54,202 nt of DNA from a virus (IMGVR_UViG_3300033483_000002:1-54202); one strand, 5' to 3'. Positions 2,965 through 10,378 are shown, numbered from the stretch's first letter. Program-made: numbers and translations. The notes: a model not told the origin generated them from the letters alone.

Positions 2965-3222
2965 ATGATCATTGGTACTGGTAAAGAACTTGTTTCGTTT
3001 GCGGAACGGCATGGAGCTATTATATCTCAGCACATTTGGGAAGCATTAACCGACTTGGATAAATGCGCCCCTAAATCTGTGGTAGAAAATTGCCACAGCA
3101 CACAACAGCGCTATGCCAAAATTGCCGCTGAACTTGAACAGTGCGCTGTGGATATGAACAGCGATAAACTTATTCCGATAGTTAGTAACCTTAACGAGTG
3201 GGCGCGGCAACTTCGGCAGTAG
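2965..3222 (+). CDS. Cassette 1 hypothetical protein
   Basis: AAGGGG RBS then ATG 2965; ends RQLRQ inside the right arm of attC-like site 1. Confidence 0.7.
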   Translation: MIIGTGKELVSFAERHGAIISQHIWEALTDLDKCAPKSVVENCHSTQQRYAKIAAELEQCAVDMNSDKLIPIVSNLNEWARQLRQ

Positions 3223-3236
3223 CGCAAACGTTGGCA
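3100..3236 (+). repeat. attC-like site 1
   Basis: ACACAAC-A-GCGCTA-TGCC-AAAA-TTGCCGC ... GCGGCAA-CTTC-GGCA-G-TAGCGC-AAAC-GTTGGCA. Confidence 0.8.
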
Positions 3237-3291
3237 AAAATAACCGGCGAGTCTTTTATTATAGGCCACACTTTTCGAAAGGAAACATTTT

Positions 3292-3558
3292 ATGCGCAAG
3301 CAATTTGAGATGACACCCGATGAGCTTAAGGAGCTTTTGGAATCATGCAAACCTGTTCCGATGATTATGTTGCAGTGCGGAACACCTCACTCTCCACAAG
3401 AAAACGCTAACCGTGCGTGGCAGTCGCTCGGAAATAAAAGAGGTTTCGTTTGGGATACCGTTCAACCTGTTCCCGGTTTGGGAATGTCATTTTTCACAGC
3501 AGAGGAATGCGCGGCGGAACAAGTGGAATCGCCGGTTACTTCTGCCAACAAGACATAG
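3292..3558 (+). CDS. Cassette 2 hypothetical phage protein
   Basis: AAAGGA RBS; 88 aa (PQENANRAWQSLG..GF.WDTV.P); stop lies in the left arm of site 2. Confidence 0.75.
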   Translation: MRKQFEMTPDELKELLESCKPVPMIMLQCGTPHSPQENANRAWQSLGNKRGFVWDTVQPVPGLGMSFFTAEECAAEQVESPVTSANKT

Positions 3559-3606
3559 CAGTTCACTTCGTCAATTGGAAACTGCTGCTATGCCAGTCCG
3601 TTGCAC
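3543..3606 (+). repeat. attC-like site 2
   Basis: TGCCAAC-AAGA-CATAGCAGTT ... AACTGC-TGC-TATG-CCAGTCC-GTTGCAC. Confidence 0.7.
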
Positions 3607-3641
3607 GCAATTTTGCGGCGACCATTTTGGAGGCAGTGAGG

Positions 3642-3908
3642 ATGCATACAGTTAATTTTGAATTAAACAATAGACTTATAAGGGCAACATTAGAATGTTC
3701 TCCTGAAGAATGGTCGCGTATTCTCACTGCGGTACAAGGGGAGCGCCGCAAAACAGTTCGGGCGAAGCGCCCCGCGCAACACACGCAGCCGAAAATTTGC
3801 CAGCACCACCGGTATGGTACTAAATGTGTGTTCAATAGGGAGTGGAACGGTATCAAAATTATGTGCTCTCACAAGCCATGTGCTGTCAAACTTCCGGCGA
3901 GTGCGTGA
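3642..3908 (+). CDS. Cassette 3 hypothetical protein (Cys/His-rich C-terminus)
   Basis: GGAGG RBS upstream of ATG 3642 (MHTVNFEL...); track start 3450 would cross the cassette boundary. Confidence 0.65.
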   Translation: MHTVNFELNNRLIRATLECSPEEWSRILTAVQGERRKTVRAKRPAQHTQPKICQHHRYGTKCVFNREWNGIKIMCSHKPCAVKLPASA

Positions 3909-3919
3909 GCACGTTGGTG
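3774..3919 (+). repeat. attC-like site 3
   Basis: GCGCAAC-A-CACGCA-GCCG-AAAA-TTTGCCAGCAC ... GTGCTGTCAAA-CTTC-CGGC-GAG-TGCGTG-AGCAC-GTTGGTG. Confidence 0.8.
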
Positions 3920-4055
3920 TCAATAAATTTTGCTCTTTTAATTATAATCGGGGCGATAGAATGGCAGTAGTAGTGCGGTCGCGCCAAACGAGCCTGTGGG
4001 TGTAATCCCCAAGCATTTTCGCCCTCTTTACATTATGGTGGCAAAATTTACATGC

Positions 4056-4111
4056 CACCAACAGGCGCAGCCCGACATTAAAACGATTGGGCGTGTGCCA
4101 TGACGTTAGAA
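4056..4111 (+). repeat. attC-like site 4
   Basis: CACCAAC-A-GGCGCA-GCCC ... GGGC-G-TGTGCC-ATGAC-GTTAGAA. Confidence 0.75.
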
Positions 4112-4150
4112 GAAACTCCGGTTGCTCCGGAACGAATTAGAGGTAGCGCA

Positions 4151-4396
4151 ATGTCAATACAAATGAAAAGGTGTAAAAAACACGGTTTGTGCAAACACAA
4201 ACTTATTCCCTTTTGCGAACTGTGCGCTACTGAATATTGGGAATCCGCTCCCTCCGTATCTTCTAACAGTCAAAGCGATGAAATTATCGCTGACATTAAG
4301 GAAGTGGTGCAGTCGTGGTTTAAATGTAACGATGATCTTTCGCATAGAGAATGTGATATACTAAACAGTGTTGTCAAATGTTATAAGAGGCGATAA
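4151..4396 (+). CDS. Cassette 5 hypothetical Cys/His-rich protein
   Basis: GAGG RBS, ATG 4151; CKKH..CKH...CELC. Confidence 0.65.
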   Translation: MSIQMKRCKKHGLCKHKLIPFCELCATEYWESAPSVSSNSQSDEIIADIKEVVQSWFKCNDDLSHRECDILNSVVKCYKRR

Positions 4397-4423
4397 CTTC
4401 ACGCATTTGGCAACACGTTGGTT
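4261..4423 (+). repeat. attC-like site 5
   Basis: TTCTAAC-A-GTCAAA-GCG-ATGAAA-TTATCGC ... GCGATAA-CTTCA-CGC-A-TTTGGC-AACAC-GTTGGTT. Confidence 0.8.
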
Positions 4424-4464
4424 GAAATGCCGGTTTTGAAAACCTTTAATTATAGGGGCGCGCA

Positions 4465-4992
4465 ATGAAAGCTGAAAGTGCAATGTTTACAATCACTATA
4501 GATAATCGCTTTTTAGAAGTAAACGCTTTAATTACCGAACGTGAGGGGATGGTTGCCGAAAATCGCTTCTGGCGTGAACGGGGTGAAGAACCGCATTATA
4601 CTATCGAGCATTTTCGCGAGACAGCAAAGAAGATGCGCGCCCTGAAAACTGAGGAAACAAAACCGGCACATCAACCAACCAGCATACATTTGTCAAACGT
4701 TGCACGCAATTGGCAATTCACAGTATTGGAGGTTTTAATGCTTGACAGTGATTTAAATGCGGTAGAACAGTTCATTATAAAAACATCAGATTATGGTCCT
4801 TTGTTATGTGCGTTTTATCGCATTAAAAAAGTGGCTTTGGAATCTTGCCAACAGTCCGGCGAAGCGCCCGTGCAACAGCTAAAGGCTGAAATTGCCGCTC
4901 TTGCAAATAAGATTGATCTTGCTTGGACGGCATGTGATTTTAATGAACATCATCGATTAACGGAGCGAATGCGGCAACTATCAGCCGTTTAG
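4465..4992 (+). CDS. In-frame fusion of cassette 6 and cassette 7 genes (second start ATG 4738)
   Basis: AGGGG RBS at first start; GGAGG RBS and in-frame ATG at 4738 follow the collapsed site 6; ends RQLSAV. Confidence 0.7.
   Translation: MKAESAMFTITIDNRFLEVNALITEREGMVAENRFWRERGEEPHYTIEHFRETAKKMRALKTEETKPAHQPTSIHLSNVARNWQFTVLEVLMLDSDLNAVEQFIIKTSDYGPLLCAFYRIKKVALESCQQSGEAPVQQLKAEIAALANKIDLAWTACDFNEHHRLTERMRQLSAV
4673..4705 (+). repeat. Collapsed (33 bp) attC-like site 6
   Basis: AACCAAC ... AAAC-GTTGCAC retained, inner stem missing. Confidence 0.6.
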
Positions 4993-5005
4993 CAACACGT
5001 TGTAA
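4870..5005 (+). repeat. attC-like site 7
   Basis: GTGCAAC-A-GCTAAA-GGCTGA-AA-TTGCCGC ... GCGGCAA-CTA-TCAGCC-G-TTTAGC-AACAC-GTTGTAA. Confidence 0.8.
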
Positions 5006-5017
5006 ATAGGAGCGCAA

Positions 5018-5263
5018 ATGATCGAACAGTTTCATAATTTAAAATCATGGGCACCGGATAATCAAGAGTTGGCCCTTAAAGTAAATGAGGTTATTTGCGC
5101 TCTGAATTCAGTTGAACTCGCTCAACAGCATCTAACAGGCAATAACACGGCGGAAGCCTTGCCCAAAGTGGAAATTACGCCTTGTGGAGATGCTAACTGT
5201 TCTTTCGTAAAGGTATACCATAAGTGTAAGGGGGTATCTTGCCCTCAATTTAAATCGGCGTAA
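5018..5263 (+). CDS. Cassette 8 hypothetical protein (C-terminal Cys cluster)
   Basis: AGGAG RBS, 81 aa. Confidence 0.65.
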   Translation: MIEQFHNLKSWAPDNQELALKVNEVICALNSVELAQQHLTGNNTAEALPKVEITPCGDANCSFVKVYHKCKGVSCPQFKSA

Positions 5264-5289
5264 CTTCTGTTATTGCCGATCCGTTGTTT
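5130..5289 (+). repeat. attC-like site 8 (left arm interrupted by about 23 nt)
   Basis: ATCTAAC-A-GGCAATAACA-[insert]-GAAATTACGCC ... GGCGTAACTTC-TGTTATTGCC-GATCC-GTTGTTT. Confidence 0.7.
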
Positions 5290-5324
5290 GCAATTTCGCT
5301 CTAAAATTTGATTGGAGGTTTGCC

Positions 5325-5558
5325 ATGACGGGCGAATGTCAATTAGCGATACGAGCGTTAGATAATTCAAACATATGTTATGTGCGCGACCTTTGGGAAG
5401 CATGGCAAACAGTTAAGGCGGAACTCGCTCAACTGTCGCATAACACAGGCAACCCGAAATTGCCTTGTCAAAAGTGTGCAATTCCAGATCCTTTCAGTTC
5501 ACTCTGGAATAAATTTTGGAATTTTTGCCCATGGTGTGGACGGCAACTTCGGGCGTAG
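5325..5558 (+). CDS. Cassette 9 protein with C-terminal zinc ribbon
   Basis: GGAGG RBS; CQKC...FCPWCG; ends RQLRA. Confidence 0.7.
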   Translation: MTGECQLAIRALDNSNICYVRDLWEAWQTVKAELAQLSHNTGNPKLPCQKCAIPDPFSSLWNKFWNFCPWCGRQLRA

Positions 5559-5573
5559 CCGGAACCGTTATAC
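5438..5573 (+). repeat. attC-like site 9
   Basis: GCATAAC-ACA-GGC-AA-CCCGAAA-TTGCC ... GGCAA-CTTCGGG-CGTA-GCC-GGAACC-GTTATAC. Confidence 0.75.
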
Positions 5574-5620
5574 GAAAAATTGCTTTTAAATATATTATAA
5601 ATTTTTTACTAAGAGGTTTT

Positions 5621-6730: not shown

Positions 6731-6904
6731 ATGCAGAAAGCTGAAATAAAATTATTATCAATGCATAAATTAATTAAAATGAAAAGAAGATTACTTTCAG
6801 TTATTAATAAAGGTATTAAATTAGATGATAATTTACAAAATGATTTAATTAATATAAATGTTGAAATATTATTTCGAGAACAGAATCAGAAAGGTAAATC
6901 ATGA
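6731..6904 (+). CDS. Small hypothetical protein (57 aa)
   Basis: AGGAGG RBS; ATGA overlap with next gene. Confidence 0.55.
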   Translation: MQKAEIKLLSMHKLIKMKRRLLSVINKGIKLDDNLQNDLININVEILFREQNQKGKS

Positions 6905-7881
6905 AACCAACTAAAATTTCACAACTGACAATTCCGGATAACTATTCACTGGAAGAAACCGGGCTTACACAATCGCTTGCACATATGTTTAGTGAATGTC
7001 CTCGAAAATTTTTGCTTGCTATCAATAGATGGAGAAGCAAGAAAGGACAGGATAAATTTGCAGTTGGAAATATTGTACATGATGTTTTATCTGTTGTTTA
7101 TAAAGAAATTCCGACTAAACCATACATTAACGGTTTTGTTGCAAGAGAAATTGGTAGATATTATAAAAATAATCCTTTAAAGTTTCAATACATTGAAAAA
7201 CAACAACTTGAAGTATTTAAAACGATTGCTTATTGTCTTTTAATAAAATACATTGAATATTACAAAGATGATTTTAAAATGGCAAAATTTACAAATACGG
7301 AACGTGAATTTTCTAAATTAATAAACGGTATTTTATGGAGAGGTAAAATTGATGGTGAACATACTGTAAAAAAAGATAAATCACTATGGGTATTGGAAAC
7401 CAAAACGAAAAGTAGAATTAATGATGAAACAATACAAAAAAGTCTTTCAATGGATTTTCAAGGAAGACTATATTGTAATATAAAAGAGAGAGAATCAAAG
7501 CAGAATATTTCCGGTTTTATTTATAATGTTATTCGTATTCCCGGAATCAAACCGCATAAGCAAGAAACAATAATGCAGTTTTCCCAGCGATTGCAGGATG
7601 ATATTGATGAGAGACCTGAATATTATTTTATGAGATGGGAAGTTCCTTTGACAGTTGAAGATAAAAACAGTTTTCTTTTTGATCTGAATACAATTGAAGA
7701 TAATATAAAAGATTATTTAGGATATAAAATAAATTTTAAAAAGATTTCCGATATAAAGAATTGTTTTTCATGTACTGGCGGAATATCACCCTGTCAATAT
7801 TTGGATGCATGCATTCAGGGACATACAGGAGGATATTATCAATCGGAAACTATTTTTGATGAGTTGGATTGTGGATTATAA
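6901..7881 (+). CDS. PD-(D/E)XK (RecB/Cas4-like) exonuclease
   Basis: ECPRKF, E..F, GKIDG, ETKT, QGRLY, C-terminal CxxC...C....C. Confidence 0.8.
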   Translation: MKPTKISQLTIPDNYSLEETGLTQSLAHMFSECPRKFLLAINRWRSKKGQDKFAVGNIVHDVLSVVYKEIPTKPYINGFVAREIGRYYKNNPLKFQYIEKQQLEVFKTIAYCLLIKYIEYYKDDFKMAKFTNTEREFSKLINGILWRGKIDGEHTVKKDKSLWVLETKTKSRINDETIQKSLSMDFQGRLYCNIKERESKQNISGFIYNVIRIPGIKPHKQETIMQFSQRLQDDIDERPEYYFMRWEVPLTVEDKNSFLFDLNTIEDNIKDYLGYKINFKKISDIKNCFSCTGGISPCQYLDACIQGHTGGYYQSETIFDELDCGL

Positions 7882-8264
7882 TGCTTGAAGAATTAATCTG
7901 CAATAACTGTGATTTATGTATATGTGAATTTCAATCAAAAAGGTTTAAATGTAAAGGTATAAGAAAACGTATTGTTTATATTTATGATTTTAATAGTGCA
8001 TTAATAAATTGTCCTTTAAAAATAAAAAGAAAGAAAGAAGAGGTAAAATTTATGAAAGAATATTCAAATGTTCATTCTTCAATACTTCGTGGATGCTGTG
8101 AAATTGAATTACGTATAGTATACGATGGTAAAAAAATATGTTCAAAAAAAGATTCTGTATTGTTAACTGGTTATCCTCATAGTGTTCAAAGGGAAATTTT
8201 GAAAATAGAATTACAAGGATTTGTTGACGGTATTTTAAAAGAATTTGATAAAGTTCCAACTTAA
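7869..8264 (+). CDS. Hypothetical protein (possibly two fused small genes; second start 8052)
   Basis: Cys-rich N-terminal half; GAGG RBS before an internal Met. Confidence 0.5.
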   Translation: MWIIMLEELICNNCDLCICEFQSKRFKCKGIRKRIVYIYDFNSALINCPLKIKRKKEEVKFMKEYSNVHSSILRGCCEIELRIVYDGKKICSKKDSVLLTGYPHSVQREILKIELQGFVDGILKEFDKVPT

Positions 8265-8306
8265 AATAAATAAACTTTAATTTTATAAAAGAAAGGATCT
8301 TGTTTT

Positions 8307-9263
8307 ATGGCAACAAAAATGCAACCAAATTTACAGTTACCTAAAAAACTTCCAGCGAGAAAAATAAGTGCTTCTGTAAGTTCAACTATTAGAAGGGATT
8401 TACAGGGAATTAAAGTTGATATAATTGATAAGCCAACTGAAGTTTCAAAAAGTATCCTTGATTATGTATACTTGATTTATGGTCCTAAAAAGGTAGGAAA
8501 GACAAAATTTTCTTCAATGTTTGGATCGGAAACAGGTACTACATATTTCTTAATGTTTGAAAAGATTGCAAGGCATTTATCAATACGTCAATCATTGATG
8601 GCTGATACTGAAAATGCAACTGCATGGTTGATTGCCGAAGCTTATCTTAATGATTTAATTTCTAATCCCAGAAATATTCGAACTATATGTGCTGATGGTC
8701 TGCTTGCAATGTATGAAAAGGCTTTTATTCAAGGATGTAAAGAAGGAGGATTTCAATATCCTGGAATGGATAATGATCAAGGAAGAAGCTGGAATAAAGT
8801 TAAAACTACATTCTATCGATTTGTAAATCGTTTAGTCGAGTCGGATTTTGGTGTAATATTTAATTGTCATGATATAGCAATACAACAGGAAAGGTTTAAC
8901 GGAGTAAGAACTCAAATAGTGCCTAATCTTCCAAAATATGCTGATGAATTTGTAAGACATAAAATTGATAATGTTTTCTATATGCATATAAGAGGAAAGG
9001 GTGAAAGGTGGTTACAAATAAGAGGGGATGAAACCGTTTATGCCGCTTGCGCTCCTGAAAAGAATTTCTTGACAGTAAATGGTGAACCAGTATGGATGAT
9101 TCCAATGGGTGATAGTGCAGAGATAGGATACAAAAATTTTGTCAATGCATTCAACAATAAACAAACCAAAACATATAAGGAGGTAACGGAAAGAGATATT
9201 ACTGAACTTACAAAACAGAAAGGGGAAACAACTATTCGAAGAGTAAAGGAGAAGAAAAAATAA
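8307..9263 (+). CDS. AAA/P-loop ATPase, Sak4/AAA_24-like recombination protein
   Basis: LIYGPKKVGKT Walker A, TICADGL Walker B, FNCH; lies between nuclease and SSB-like gene. Confidence 0.75.
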   Translation: MATKMQPNLQLPKKLPARKISASVSSTIRRDLQGIKVDIIDKPTEVSKSILDYVYLIYGPKKVGKTKFSSMFGSETGTTYFLMFEKIARHLSIRQSLMADTENATAWLIAEAYLNDLISNPRNIRTICADGLLAMYEKAFIQGCKEGGFQYPGMDNDQGRSWNKVKTTFYRFVNRLVESDFGVIFNCHDIAIQQERFNGVRTQIVPNLPKYADEFVRHKIDNVFYMHIRGKGERWLQIRGDETVYAACAPEKNFLTVNGEPVWMIPMGDSAEIGYKNFVNAFNNKQTKTYKEVTERDITELTKQKGETTIRRVKEKKK

Positions 9264-9361
9264 TGAAAGGAAATACTTTTGTATTTGCTGCATGGATCAA
9301 TATTTAATTCAAAGGAAATTCAGAAAGCAAGAAAAAGATCACAAAAACGAAAGGTATCAAA

Positions 9362-10378
9362 ATGAAAGAATCAAGTGCATTTCAAGCAATTGCAGAAGAA
9401 ATGAAAGATGCATTCCGCCAAGGAAAGCAGGACTATGATAATCGTCAACTACCTATTCCGGATGGGACTTATGTTGCACGAATACAAAGTTGTGCAATAA
9501 AGAAAAGTAAATCATCGGAAAATCATTATGTCGAAACGGCTTACTATATCATGGAAGGTGAGCAGAAAGGAAGAATTGAATATGATCGAATCATGATTCA
9601 ACCGGAAAAGGCACCTTTTATCATTCGATTTTTTGAGTCATTCGGGTGTTTTGATACAAATCTTCTTTCAGAAAATGTCGAGGAAAATCTAAACTCTTTC
9701 TGTGAAACAATCAATCAATCTTCACCACTCGTAAAGATTACTACAAAACAGTGGAGCAATACGGAAAAAGGAAGTAGTGGAGTCAATTATTTTTTGAATC
9801 AAATTCTTGAAGGGATTGAAGAAGCAACAAATGATAGTGCTGATTCAGGAAATGACGGTCTTAACGAAATTACTGACAAAGCCGCTTTGAAAAAGATTGC
9901 AATGGAAGAAGAGCTTGACATAAACCCTGTTCAGTTTGTTAGATTAACAGTTGATGAACTGCGTACAGTAATTAGAGAGTGCAGAAACGCACTTGGAGAT
10001 CAAACTACCTCAACTGAAGCGGTTGATCCGGAAACAGAGGAAAAACGTCAAAAGCTTCTTCAACTATGTCAATCCCAAAATATACAGGAAGCAACTGAAG
10101 AGATGACACTGGAAGAGCTTAAACTTGTGATCTTCGATGAAGAAAAGCAGGTTGGATACACATTTGAAACCAGTGGTGAAAATGCATTAACAGAAGAAGA
10201 AATTGAATTGCTTATTGATGTTGGTCTTGATGGTCAAATTAATCAACCGGAAGAAAAACCAGAACCACCAAAACAGAAAGCAAAAGCACCAGCAAAAGAA
10301 CCAACAAAAACACCAGCAAAAACAATGCCAAATAAAGGAAAACTCTCTCTTCCAGCGAAAAAAGGAGGGCGGAAATAA
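9362..10378 (+). CDS. Putative ssDNA-binding protein (DUF669-like N-terminus) with acidic linker and basic tail
   Basis: PIPDGTYVARI..., EGEQKGR; position after Sak4-like ATPase. Confidence 0.6.
   Translation: MKESSAFQAIAEEMKDAFRQGKQDYDNRQLPIPDGTYVARIQSCAIKKSKSSENHYVETAYYIMEGEQKGRIEYDRIMIQPEKAPFIIRFFESFGCFDTNLLSENVEENLNSFCETINQSSPLVKITTKQWSNTEKGSSGVNYFLNQILEGIEEATNDSADSGNDGLNEITDKAALKKIAMEEELDINPVQFVRLTVDELRTVIRECRNALGDQTTSTEAVDPETEEKRQKLLQLCQSQNIQEATEEMTLEELKLVIFDEEKQVGYTFETSGENALTEEEIELLIDVGLDGQINQPEEKPEPPKQKAKAPAKEPTKTPAKTMPNKGKLSLPAKKGGRK

Follow-up and report, generated by a model that had tools for sequence, protein, structure and literature searches.

Recombination sites of the attC kind are known from virulent phages as clusters without an integrase. 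Such phage clusters are recombined by IntI1 and carry methyltransferases as cargo (Qi et al. 2023, PMC9892861). The ends of the site follow a 7-nt box rule, RYYYAAC and GTTRRRY (PMC9892861, PMC2674596). One integron database permits an overlap of at most 15 bp between an open reading frame (ORF) and the site (PMC2674596). Integron cassettes are in general promoterless (10.1101/2023.11.21.568050), and fused cassettes arise by loss of attC (PMC8876359). On the other hand, T4-type phages shuffle small ORFs between conserved motifs made of a promoter and a stem-loop, and mini-circles are formed (Arbiol et al. 2010, PMC2839356). Here we describe an island of nine small head-to-tail units, C1 to C9, in the viral record IMGVR_UViG_3300033483_000002:1-54202. 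We call this whole stretch of 54,202 bases the window; it is the entire virus record, with an estimated completeness of 92%. The units are separated by imperfect hairpins which resemble attC sites, and in the long sites the gene of the unit runs through the hairpin. The hairpin DNA is very probably used twice, as structure and as protein code.

Each unit follows the same order. It starts with GTTG and an arm of about 20 nt (x). The ORF follows with its ribosome site, preceded in about half of the units by a promoter-like motif. The unit continues with x', which ends in CAAC, and with the stretch y/loop/y' that leads to the next GTTG. The 20-24 nt ending in the AAC box (x') are complementary to the first 20-24 nt of their own unit (x), and this complementarity reaches 83-91% in the inverted repeats I1, I2 and I3. 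The stretch from the AAC box to the next GTT forms a second imperfect hairpin, with arm y, a loop and arm y'. An internal YAAC box (CAAC or TAAC) is present in each window unit. In six of them (C1, C3, C5, C7, C8 and C9) the site is long, with hairpins of 125-152 nt. We refer to the segment GTTG...CAAC as the head and to CAAC...GTTG as the tail.

The unit boundaries, placed between C and GTTR, were chosen by context among all the matches to [CG]GTT[GAC]. Therefore, the GTT is invariant by construction. All the 45 chosen boundaries start with GTT, partly for this reason, and 44 of them read GTTG or GTTA; the exception is GTTC, at 7491 of contig G001. Past the boundary the consensus is GTTG.acGcAAT, and the conservation after GTT played no part in the first choice of boundaries.

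The six long sites of the window are all read through. The frame stays open through the left arm and across the loop, then over most of the right arm, and the six ORFs stop 4-20 nt short of the boundary. The first-pass annotation, made by a model from the DNA alone, had proposed that genes run through the site and stop near the end of the hairpin, with the AAC box about 120-135 nt before the stop codon in C1, C3, C5, C7, C8 and C9. The measured distances, 117-132 nt, are close to this. Likewise, the arm-encoded peptides that it quoted were all found in the cassette translations. It had also placed a zinc ribbon of C9 in and at the edge of the loop, where we see it: CQKC comes directly after the left arm, and CPWC before the right-arm-encoded GRQLRA.

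We then considered further sets of long sites. In the curated set from five contigs, which leaves out unit c8 of G004 because its box reads AAT, the incoming frame was open to 30 nt or less from the boundary in 18/20 sites. The controls gave 11/40 for the other forward frames, 17/60 for the reverse frames and 642/4000 for shuffled loops. Ten further loci, called automatically and thus less accurately than the curated ones, contained 70 units; the box was confident in 58 of these, and 38 had long sites. Most of these long sites (28/38) were read through; nine stopped soon after the box and one overran the boundary. So, reading through the site is the rule, yet it is not universal.

The loops were examined in sites of the C7 type. 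The exact 22-nt pattern of the C7 left arm recovered 11 more sites in 10 contigs, making 12 with that of the window. In all 12, the ORF crosses the site and ends at the same right-arm stop. The loops have 66-81 nt, always a multiple of three. None of the 12 contains a stop in the frame of the ORF, while the other two frames have stops in 9/12 and 12/12. The loop sequences show an identity of 0.55, compared with 0.53 for shuffled loops. The same arms recur in a contig of another sample, where they are 65 letters apart instead of 62.

The C9 family extends this picture. When 1.84 billion representatives were searched with a profile, 53 were matched at E up to 0.001. Members share a conserved central motif, followed by tails that differ widely in sequence and length. 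In the 18 sequences of zinc-ribbon type, C48 is invariant, and C68 and C71 are conserved in at least 90%. The first-pass annotation had held that its proposal would fall if homologs stopped ahead of the AAC box or if the loops showed no coding constraint. Neither was the case. No early stop was found in the 12 C7-type sites, whose loops have an open frame, whole codons and no in-frame stop, and the 52 inspected profile matches all continue beyond the AAC box, the profile itself including positions after the box.

The dN/dS values of seven cassette pairs were saturated, dS being undefined or >1, and the protein-guided alignment introduced a bias. For this reason they were not used, and the coding character of the loops was judged by the tests of frame, stop and length. 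An AlphaFold2 model of C9 built from 18 sequences (mean predicted local distance difference test score 67.4, tail 57-67) was too weak and was not used either. The data support that the loops have been maintained as code, open in the frame of the ORF. The best reading of the variable loop is a hypervariable C-terminal protein module.

The arms present the opposite pattern to the loops. In the C7 type they are about 90-100% identical. The right arm, which was not part of the search pattern, has an identity of 0.89 with near-absent synonymous change. Between C7 and its counterpart in L046, the arm bases are identical in 29/29 and 25/25 positions, and the adjoining loop has diverged. We conclude that pairing and coding act jointly on the arms, which would explain why the arms are nearly frozen beside diverged loops. 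The AAC box falls on codon position 1 in seven, position 2 in nine and position 3 in two of the 18 read-through sites. When the DNA is read against the translations, one and the same left-arm motif gives KIA in the C1 protein and KLP in that of C9. Since the arms are conserved, the loops are unrelated and in frame, and the AAC box occurs in all three frames, the arms are constrained as nucleic acid and the loops as code. The data also support that the recurring peptides encoded by the arms are a side effect of arm conservation.

The pairing of the arms was tested in 66 units. The CAAC/TAAC box could be placed in 58 of them, and eight were dropped because the box was unclear or truncated. The inner stem is complementary in at least 6/7 positions in 42/58 cognate sites, compared with 9.4% of the non-cognate pairings. 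The 58 sites have 43 different 8-mers after AAC. Cognate arms covary.

The folding differs between the strands. Bottom-strand fold z values were -3.47 for C1, -2.26 for C3, -2.46 for C7 and -2.17 for C9. On the top strand they were -2.14, -1.07, -2.40 and -1.97, respectively. The non-coding strand is the more stable in 28/37 cases for y and 30/37 for x with RNA parameters, and in 22/37 and 27/37 with DNA parameters. Top-strand mismatches are of the A.C type in 99 cases and of the G.T type in 27. Only the 3' arm of the coding strand has unpaired bases: 1 nt on one arm stands against 3-4 nt on the other beside the core, followed by a bulge of 1-3 nt. In canonical attC sites the unpaired bases are on the opposite arm, and the geometry seen here would be a mirror image. 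An Rfam scan gave no family matches, Rfam containing no attC model.

The architecture is not restricted to the window. With short arm patterns and the protein profile, we found it in 12 other viral contigs of IMG/VR (L046, L050, L080, L084, L037 and L113-L119, of which L115 and L117 are near-identical). One more locus, L120, has two boundaries only. The hosting contigs have 38-58% GC, and four are complete genomes with terminal repeats, of 98-254 kb. Beyond a few pairs, the flanking proteins of the array loci have almost none in common. Therefore, the units have spread across unrelated phages.

The arm x' matches the start of its own unit better than that of the next one. The mean was 7.26/12 matches with the own 5' end and 4.17 with the next, and the own value was the greater in 48/58 units. 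As the first box placement had used the own start, we ran the test again with boxes located solely by the y/y' pairing. The values were then 5.67 and 4.03; the own value was the higher in 40 of the 66 units and the lower in 16, and ten were ties (p = 1.4e-5).

Heads, tails and neighbouring units assort independently. One tail type (arms and loop) has unrelated heads before it and different next units after it, and a single C9-family tail is attached to three or more different heads. Consequently, exchange points are located at each of the two cores, GTT and AAC. That the loop is a route for attaching C-terminal modules, as the first-pass annotation had suggested, fits with the same tail type standing behind unrelated N-terminal parts. 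In the protein P0004 we observed two tails in tandem. The first ends in the usual arm residues without a stop, and a second junction like an AAC box follows.

How these units move is less clear than their anatomy. We give about even chances to the island being an integron-like micro-cassette array without an integrase, in which the hairpins would act as recombination sites. The stretch from AAC to GTT would fold as single-stranded nucleic acid, presumably best on the non-coding strand. The folded site would be the point of exchange for units and half units, among arrays and among unrelated phages, and the enzyme could be supplied in trans by the host. For exchange, the short AAC/GTT core and paired arms may be enough, which would let the loop change freely. 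In most long sites, translation of the loop would give the last 25-45 residues of the cassette protein. The arms, translated in the frame of each cassette, would give the recurring KIAA, KLP and RQLR peptides. Genome compaction is a possible reason for the overlap. The proposal of the first-pass annotation that these are recombination hairpins holds in part. The hairpins are real and their structure is conserved; they may be recombination sites of the attC kind, but no recombinase is encoded nearby and the unpaired bases appear to lie on the non-canonical arm.

Several observations weigh against the integron-like reading. Tyrosine recombinases (PF00589) are absent from the 11 viral records searched, six of them 92-100% complete, and the layout of a complete integron (intI and attI beside the array) was thus not found in them. 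Serine recombinases (PF00239) gave 0/5 records, and the Y1 transposase (PF01797) 0/6 searched genomes; the copy in L046 is an insertion sequence (IS) inside a cassette. A reverse transcriptase (PF00078) is not present in the window (0/1). With no recombinase in cis, an enzyme for the exchange would have to work in trans or belong to a new kind. We did not find a bacterial reservoir either. Among 185,579 species genomes there was one match, a 6-kb contig of a metagenome-assembled genome (MAG). This MAG has three tyrosine recombinases, none reaching the integron-integrase cut-off (TIGR02249). The protein family occurs in 1/401 sampled genomes of its phylum, so the MAG contigs may be mis-binned phage DNA. 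Direct evidence of exchange is absent, and circular or excised forms were not seen in the assembled contigs, where rare joints are invisible. Breakpoints occur also at the AAC box, and one lies within the x arm: between C9 and L103 (5583-5873), the first 9 nt differ and then 26/26 are identical. Hence, the exchange is not limited to the point between G and TT. The geometry also departs from attC. The x/x' pairing extends over 12-24 nt, well past a 7-nt box, the unpaired bases appear to be on the other arm, and beyond AAC and GTT the boxes break the RYYY/RRRY rule, as positions 5-7 after GTT are variable and positions 8-12 (GcAAT) conserved. Finally, the promoter-like motif in about half of the units is unlike integron cassettes.

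The lack of a site-specific recombinase in the phages searched is what would be expected if the units were instead modules of the T4 kind, that is, segments bounded by promoter or RNA structures and shuffled by (relaxed) homologous recombination with the annealing machinery of the phage. Segments of 25-60 nt are conserved between contigs (x with the promoter region, x'-AAC-y, and y'), the breakpoint within the x arm agrees with this idea, and a Sak4-like AAA_24 protein, a DUF669 protein and a PD-(D/E)XK nuclease are encoded close downstream. The shuffling and mini-circles of T4-type phages are a precedent (PMC2839356). However, homologous exchange leaves unexplained the x/x' and y/y' pairing with covariation over 43 arm types, the better pairing of the non-coding strand, and junctions at a 4-nt core between independently assorting segments. 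Neither are there sigma-70-like promoters or terminator-like sites at the unit ends, although the promoter type of the host may differ. Our sigma-70-like scan gave six promoter-like sites against 6.6 expected, none of them at the 5' end of a unit on the + strand, with a consensus that may not be that of the host. The only one on the + strand lies inside C6. No terminator-like site was found at the 3' ends of the units on the + strand. We consider this explanation unlikely. A little less likely to us is a new mechanism, in which a structure-specific nuclease of the phage or host acts at the base of the hairpin, or replication switches template, with heads and tails as separate modules. Exchange points at both cores, the tandem tails of P0004, the departures from attC geometry, the failure to find a known recombinase family, and a RuvC-like resolvase gene directly upstream of the array (phrog_1770, E = 1.5e-4) would all agree with it. 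Nevertheless, the RuvC-like match is weak, no candidate enzyme is common to the array-bearing contigs, and the tests made gave no support to template switching.

The strand asymmetry, which is larger with RNA parameters counting G.U (28/37, 30/37), could also point to a fold acting at the RNA level, as an antisense transcript or as an element of mRNA processing or stability, the modularity being a by-product of old duplications. But all the window genes are on the + strand and the better-pairing strand is the -, Rfam gave no match, and the spread into unrelated phages requires mobility anyway. Besides, the x arm lies upstream of the promoter-like motif and therefore outside the transcript of its own unit. 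This makes an RNA-level fold improbable. It is very improbable that the conservation is purely at the protein level, in a tandemly duplicated family of small proteins with incidental inverted repeats. The family is real: it has a conserved central motif, and the profile matched 53 representatives (E up to 0.001). Yet the heads are unrelated, the AAC box takes all three codon positions, the same left-arm motif gives KIA or KLP, cognate arms covary better than shuffled pairings, and synonymous sites of the right arm are near-invariant beside loops of random-level identity. A wider view than the integron-like array is possible, although we hold it only tentatively and think it rather doubtful: a widespread, integrase-free system of phage gene assembly. 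In it, heads (promoter, start and N-terminal part) and tails (C-terminal part), each delimited by hairpins, would assort independently at the 4-nt core, and small proteins would be composed from exchangeable pieces. The tail would display a hypervariable peptide of about 20-27 residues between arm segments frozen by pairing and coding. A structure-specific recombinase or nuclease, of a kind not yet tied to cassettes, would do the exchange.

The table gives the position of the units and of their parts.

Table 1. Coordinates of the array, its units and related features. Positions count from the first base of the window, except in the last row. Each unit begins with the G of its boundary GTT; the G that closes C9 is at 5567.
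Feature	Position	Strand	Arms x; x'	ORF	AAC box	AAC-to-GTT site (nt)	Stop to boundary (nt)	AAC to stop (nt)	Remarks
Array C1-C9	2920-5566	+							Nine head-to-tail units of 192-370 bp; GC 0.42-0.49, flanks about 0.30
C1	2920-3229	+	2920-2942; 3084-3106	2965-3222	3104	126	7	119	x' ends in CAAC; inverted repeats I3 and I12; fold
C1 site parts	3107-3225	+							y 3107-3128; loop 3129-3203; y' 3204-3225; stop 3220-3222
C2	3230-3599	+	3230-3253; 3526-3549	3292-3558	3547	53			I1 of 24 nt, 88% complementary
C2 site	3547-3599	+				53			Short; ORF stop 12 nt past the start of the AAC box
C3	3600-3912	+		3642-3908	3778-3780	135	4	131	Site read through; Cys-rich loop
C4	3913-4104	+			4060-4062	45			Short site; no ORF of at least 35 aa starting inside
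C5	4105-4416	+		4151-4396 (or from 4100)	4265-4267	152	20	132	Site read through
C6	4417-4698	+	4417-4438; 4658-4679	4465-4737	4677	22			I2 of 22 nt, 91% complementary; site 4677-4698
C7	4699-4998	+		4738-4992	4874-4876	125	6	119	Site read through
C8	4999-5282	+		5018-5263	5134-5136	149	19	130	Third candidate box; site read through; Cys-rich loop
C9	5283-5566	+		5325-5558	5442-5444	125	8	117	Site read through; two Cys pairs at the loop edges
Terminal GTTA box	5567-5583	+							Cassette-start-like motif; closes the last site; AT-rich phage sequence beyond
TTATA(A/G)G-like motifs	2946-2960, 3255-3265, 3939-3950, 4447-4458, 5588-5600								
Side loci of the L046-array IS200-like transposase and MT-A70	L093 9312-9701; L046 8328-8972	-							

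Some units depart from the general order. C4 has arms, a promoter-like motif and its short site, and the longest ORF found in it encodes 22 aa. It may be an ORF-less or decayed unit. In C5, an alternative ATG at 4100 lies ahead of the boundary at 4105. The site of C6 is cut down and without a stop, so its ORF is fused to that of C7: it runs on in frame, and the joint ORF (4465-4992) encodes 175 aa. The counterpart of C6 in L050 has a full 124-nt site preceding the same kind of next unit. At the end of the array, the AAC box of C9 pairs better with the terminal GTTA box than with its own start.

The TTATA(A/G)G-like motif, together with a GC-rich stretch, is located 29-34 nt after GTT in C1, C2, C4 and C6, and also after the array. 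It is missing from C3, C5, C7, C8 and C9. That it acts as a promoter is a guess, since it does not agree with the sigma-70 scan. Over the whole window, the arm 8-mer is not enriched (66 matches against 87.6 expected, 13 of the 66 inside the island).

The carrier of the array is a virulent tailed phage with an AT-rich genome. The GC content of the window is about 30% in general and 42-49% in 3001-5500. All its large ORFs are on the + strand. They encode a portal protein, an HK97-type capsid, a large terminase (Terminase_3), a family A DNA polymerase, an SNF2-type helicase, a protein of the uracil-DNA glycosylase (UDG) superfamily and a PD-(D/E)XK nuclease. On one side, the island has the weakly RuvC-like gene (2382-2891) as neighbor; on the other, a small ORF and then the UDG-like gene. 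The PD-(D/E)XK nuclease, the Sak4-like AAA_24 protein and the DUF669 protein are found close 3' of the array (6901-10378) and could be a phage recombination module. The cumulative GC skew climbs nearly monotonically over the entire record. If replication is the cause, the hairpin strand that pairs better would serve as template for the leading strand.

Searches with the window found few relatives. The array gave no blastn match among 50,697 deposited phage records. None of the nine cassette proteins passed the cut-offs against Pfam and PHROGs, and a word-based protein search with the C9 protein found no relatives. The helicase has only distant relatives, below 60% identity. A protein-pattern search for the RuvC-like gene in the viral contigs gave nothing. 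Ten loci from another pattern included none with a blastn match to the window or with at least three boundary motifs in 3 kb.

Other arrays add some observations. Two contigs of a Candidatus Omnitrophota MAG, L103 (whole) and L112 (1-5800, reverse strand), consist mostly of such arrays. Another sample of the same study (runs X1 and X2) has a near-identical C5 with a different AT-rich sequence upstream of 4101. This sequence shares 10 nt with the window backbone at about 2905-2914, just upstream of the array, and it may belong to a related phage that starts its array with a different unit. In the array of L046, an IS200-like Y1 transposase (PF01797, E = 2.8e-35) is inserted between the x arm and the promoter-like motif. 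The same array has an MT-A70 methyltransferase (E = 3.1e-23) whose 3' end enters the AAC-to-GTT hairpin.

If the hairpins recombine, a structured recombination site can carry an entire protein segment in its loop, and the mobility of genes would be tied directly to the exchange of protein modules. It would also mean that phages, including complete genomes of 98-254 kb, hold large arrays without an integrase of their own. The Cys-rich and helical tails, placed on small proteins of the early region, are candidates for functions in host interaction or counter-defence. The arms offer a clear natural case of one sequence under constraints of pairing and coding. There is also a consequence for annotation. 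A tool that looks for cassette ORFs only in the intervals between sites would lose these genes or cut them short, and one that seeks sites only between genes would overlook the sites.

Compared with known systems, the array shares much with the clusters of attC sites lacking integron integrases (CALIN). The units are head to tail in the same orientation, with an imperfect palindrome at the end, AAC and GTT triplets and a variable loop, and the site lengths here are 45-168 nt. As in attC, the non-coding strand folds better, and structure is conserved instead of sequence. The 5' end of each unit is complementary to its own AAC (R'') box, as from an exchange between G and TT in attC cassettes, and no integrase lies near the array, as in CALIN. 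A DNA methyltransferase is cargo here in L046, as in the phage cassettes reported in PMC9892861. Unlike attC, the ORF covers the entire site. Unlike integrons, the window units have just 192-370 bp and exchange takes place also at the AAC box. The Tetrasphaera phage TJE1, with published attC sites, does not have the boundary motif.

Among models that do without a recombinase, the nearest is that of the promoter early stem-loop (PeSL) elements of T4-type phages (PMC2839356; Comeau et al. 2014, PMC4122927). There too, small ORFs whose function is not known are surrounded by short conserved motifs, within a region that varies in a virulent phage, and the shuffling takes place without a dedicated recombinase gene. 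PeSLs are intergenic and made of a local terminator stem-loop and a sigma-70-like promoter, and these defining parts were not found in the array. Here, long-range stems surround coding sequence without a T run, and they enclose 66-100 nt of it, unlike the PeSL terminators. The array phage is not T4-like, having an HK97-type capsid, a family A polymerase and Terminase_3. Likewise, C6 resembles fused cassettes, with its site down to 22 nt and joined in frame to C7. This concerns one unit only, and the model of fused cassettes leaves the reading through intact sites unexplained.

With diversity-generating retroelements, the loops have in common about 20-27 hypervariable codons at the 3' end of a gene, conserved flanks and an adjoining hairpin. 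In contrast to them, the window has neither a reverse transcriptase nor a template repeat (no second copy of a loop in the window), and the loops vary in length and at all bases, not at adenines alone. IS200/IS605 elements are also small mobile units with single-strand hairpins at their ends, and one array, that of L046, has an IS200-like transposase. Nevertheless, the pairs here are long-range, and not small subterminal hairpins. Our searches of the literature on ORFs overlapping attC, on phage cassettes and on PeSLs did not turn up this architecture, though supplements and subscription journals may hold a description. Thus, clusters of attC without integrase in virulent phages are already known, and what appears to be new here is an ORF that spans the site and a loop that forms the tail of the protein.

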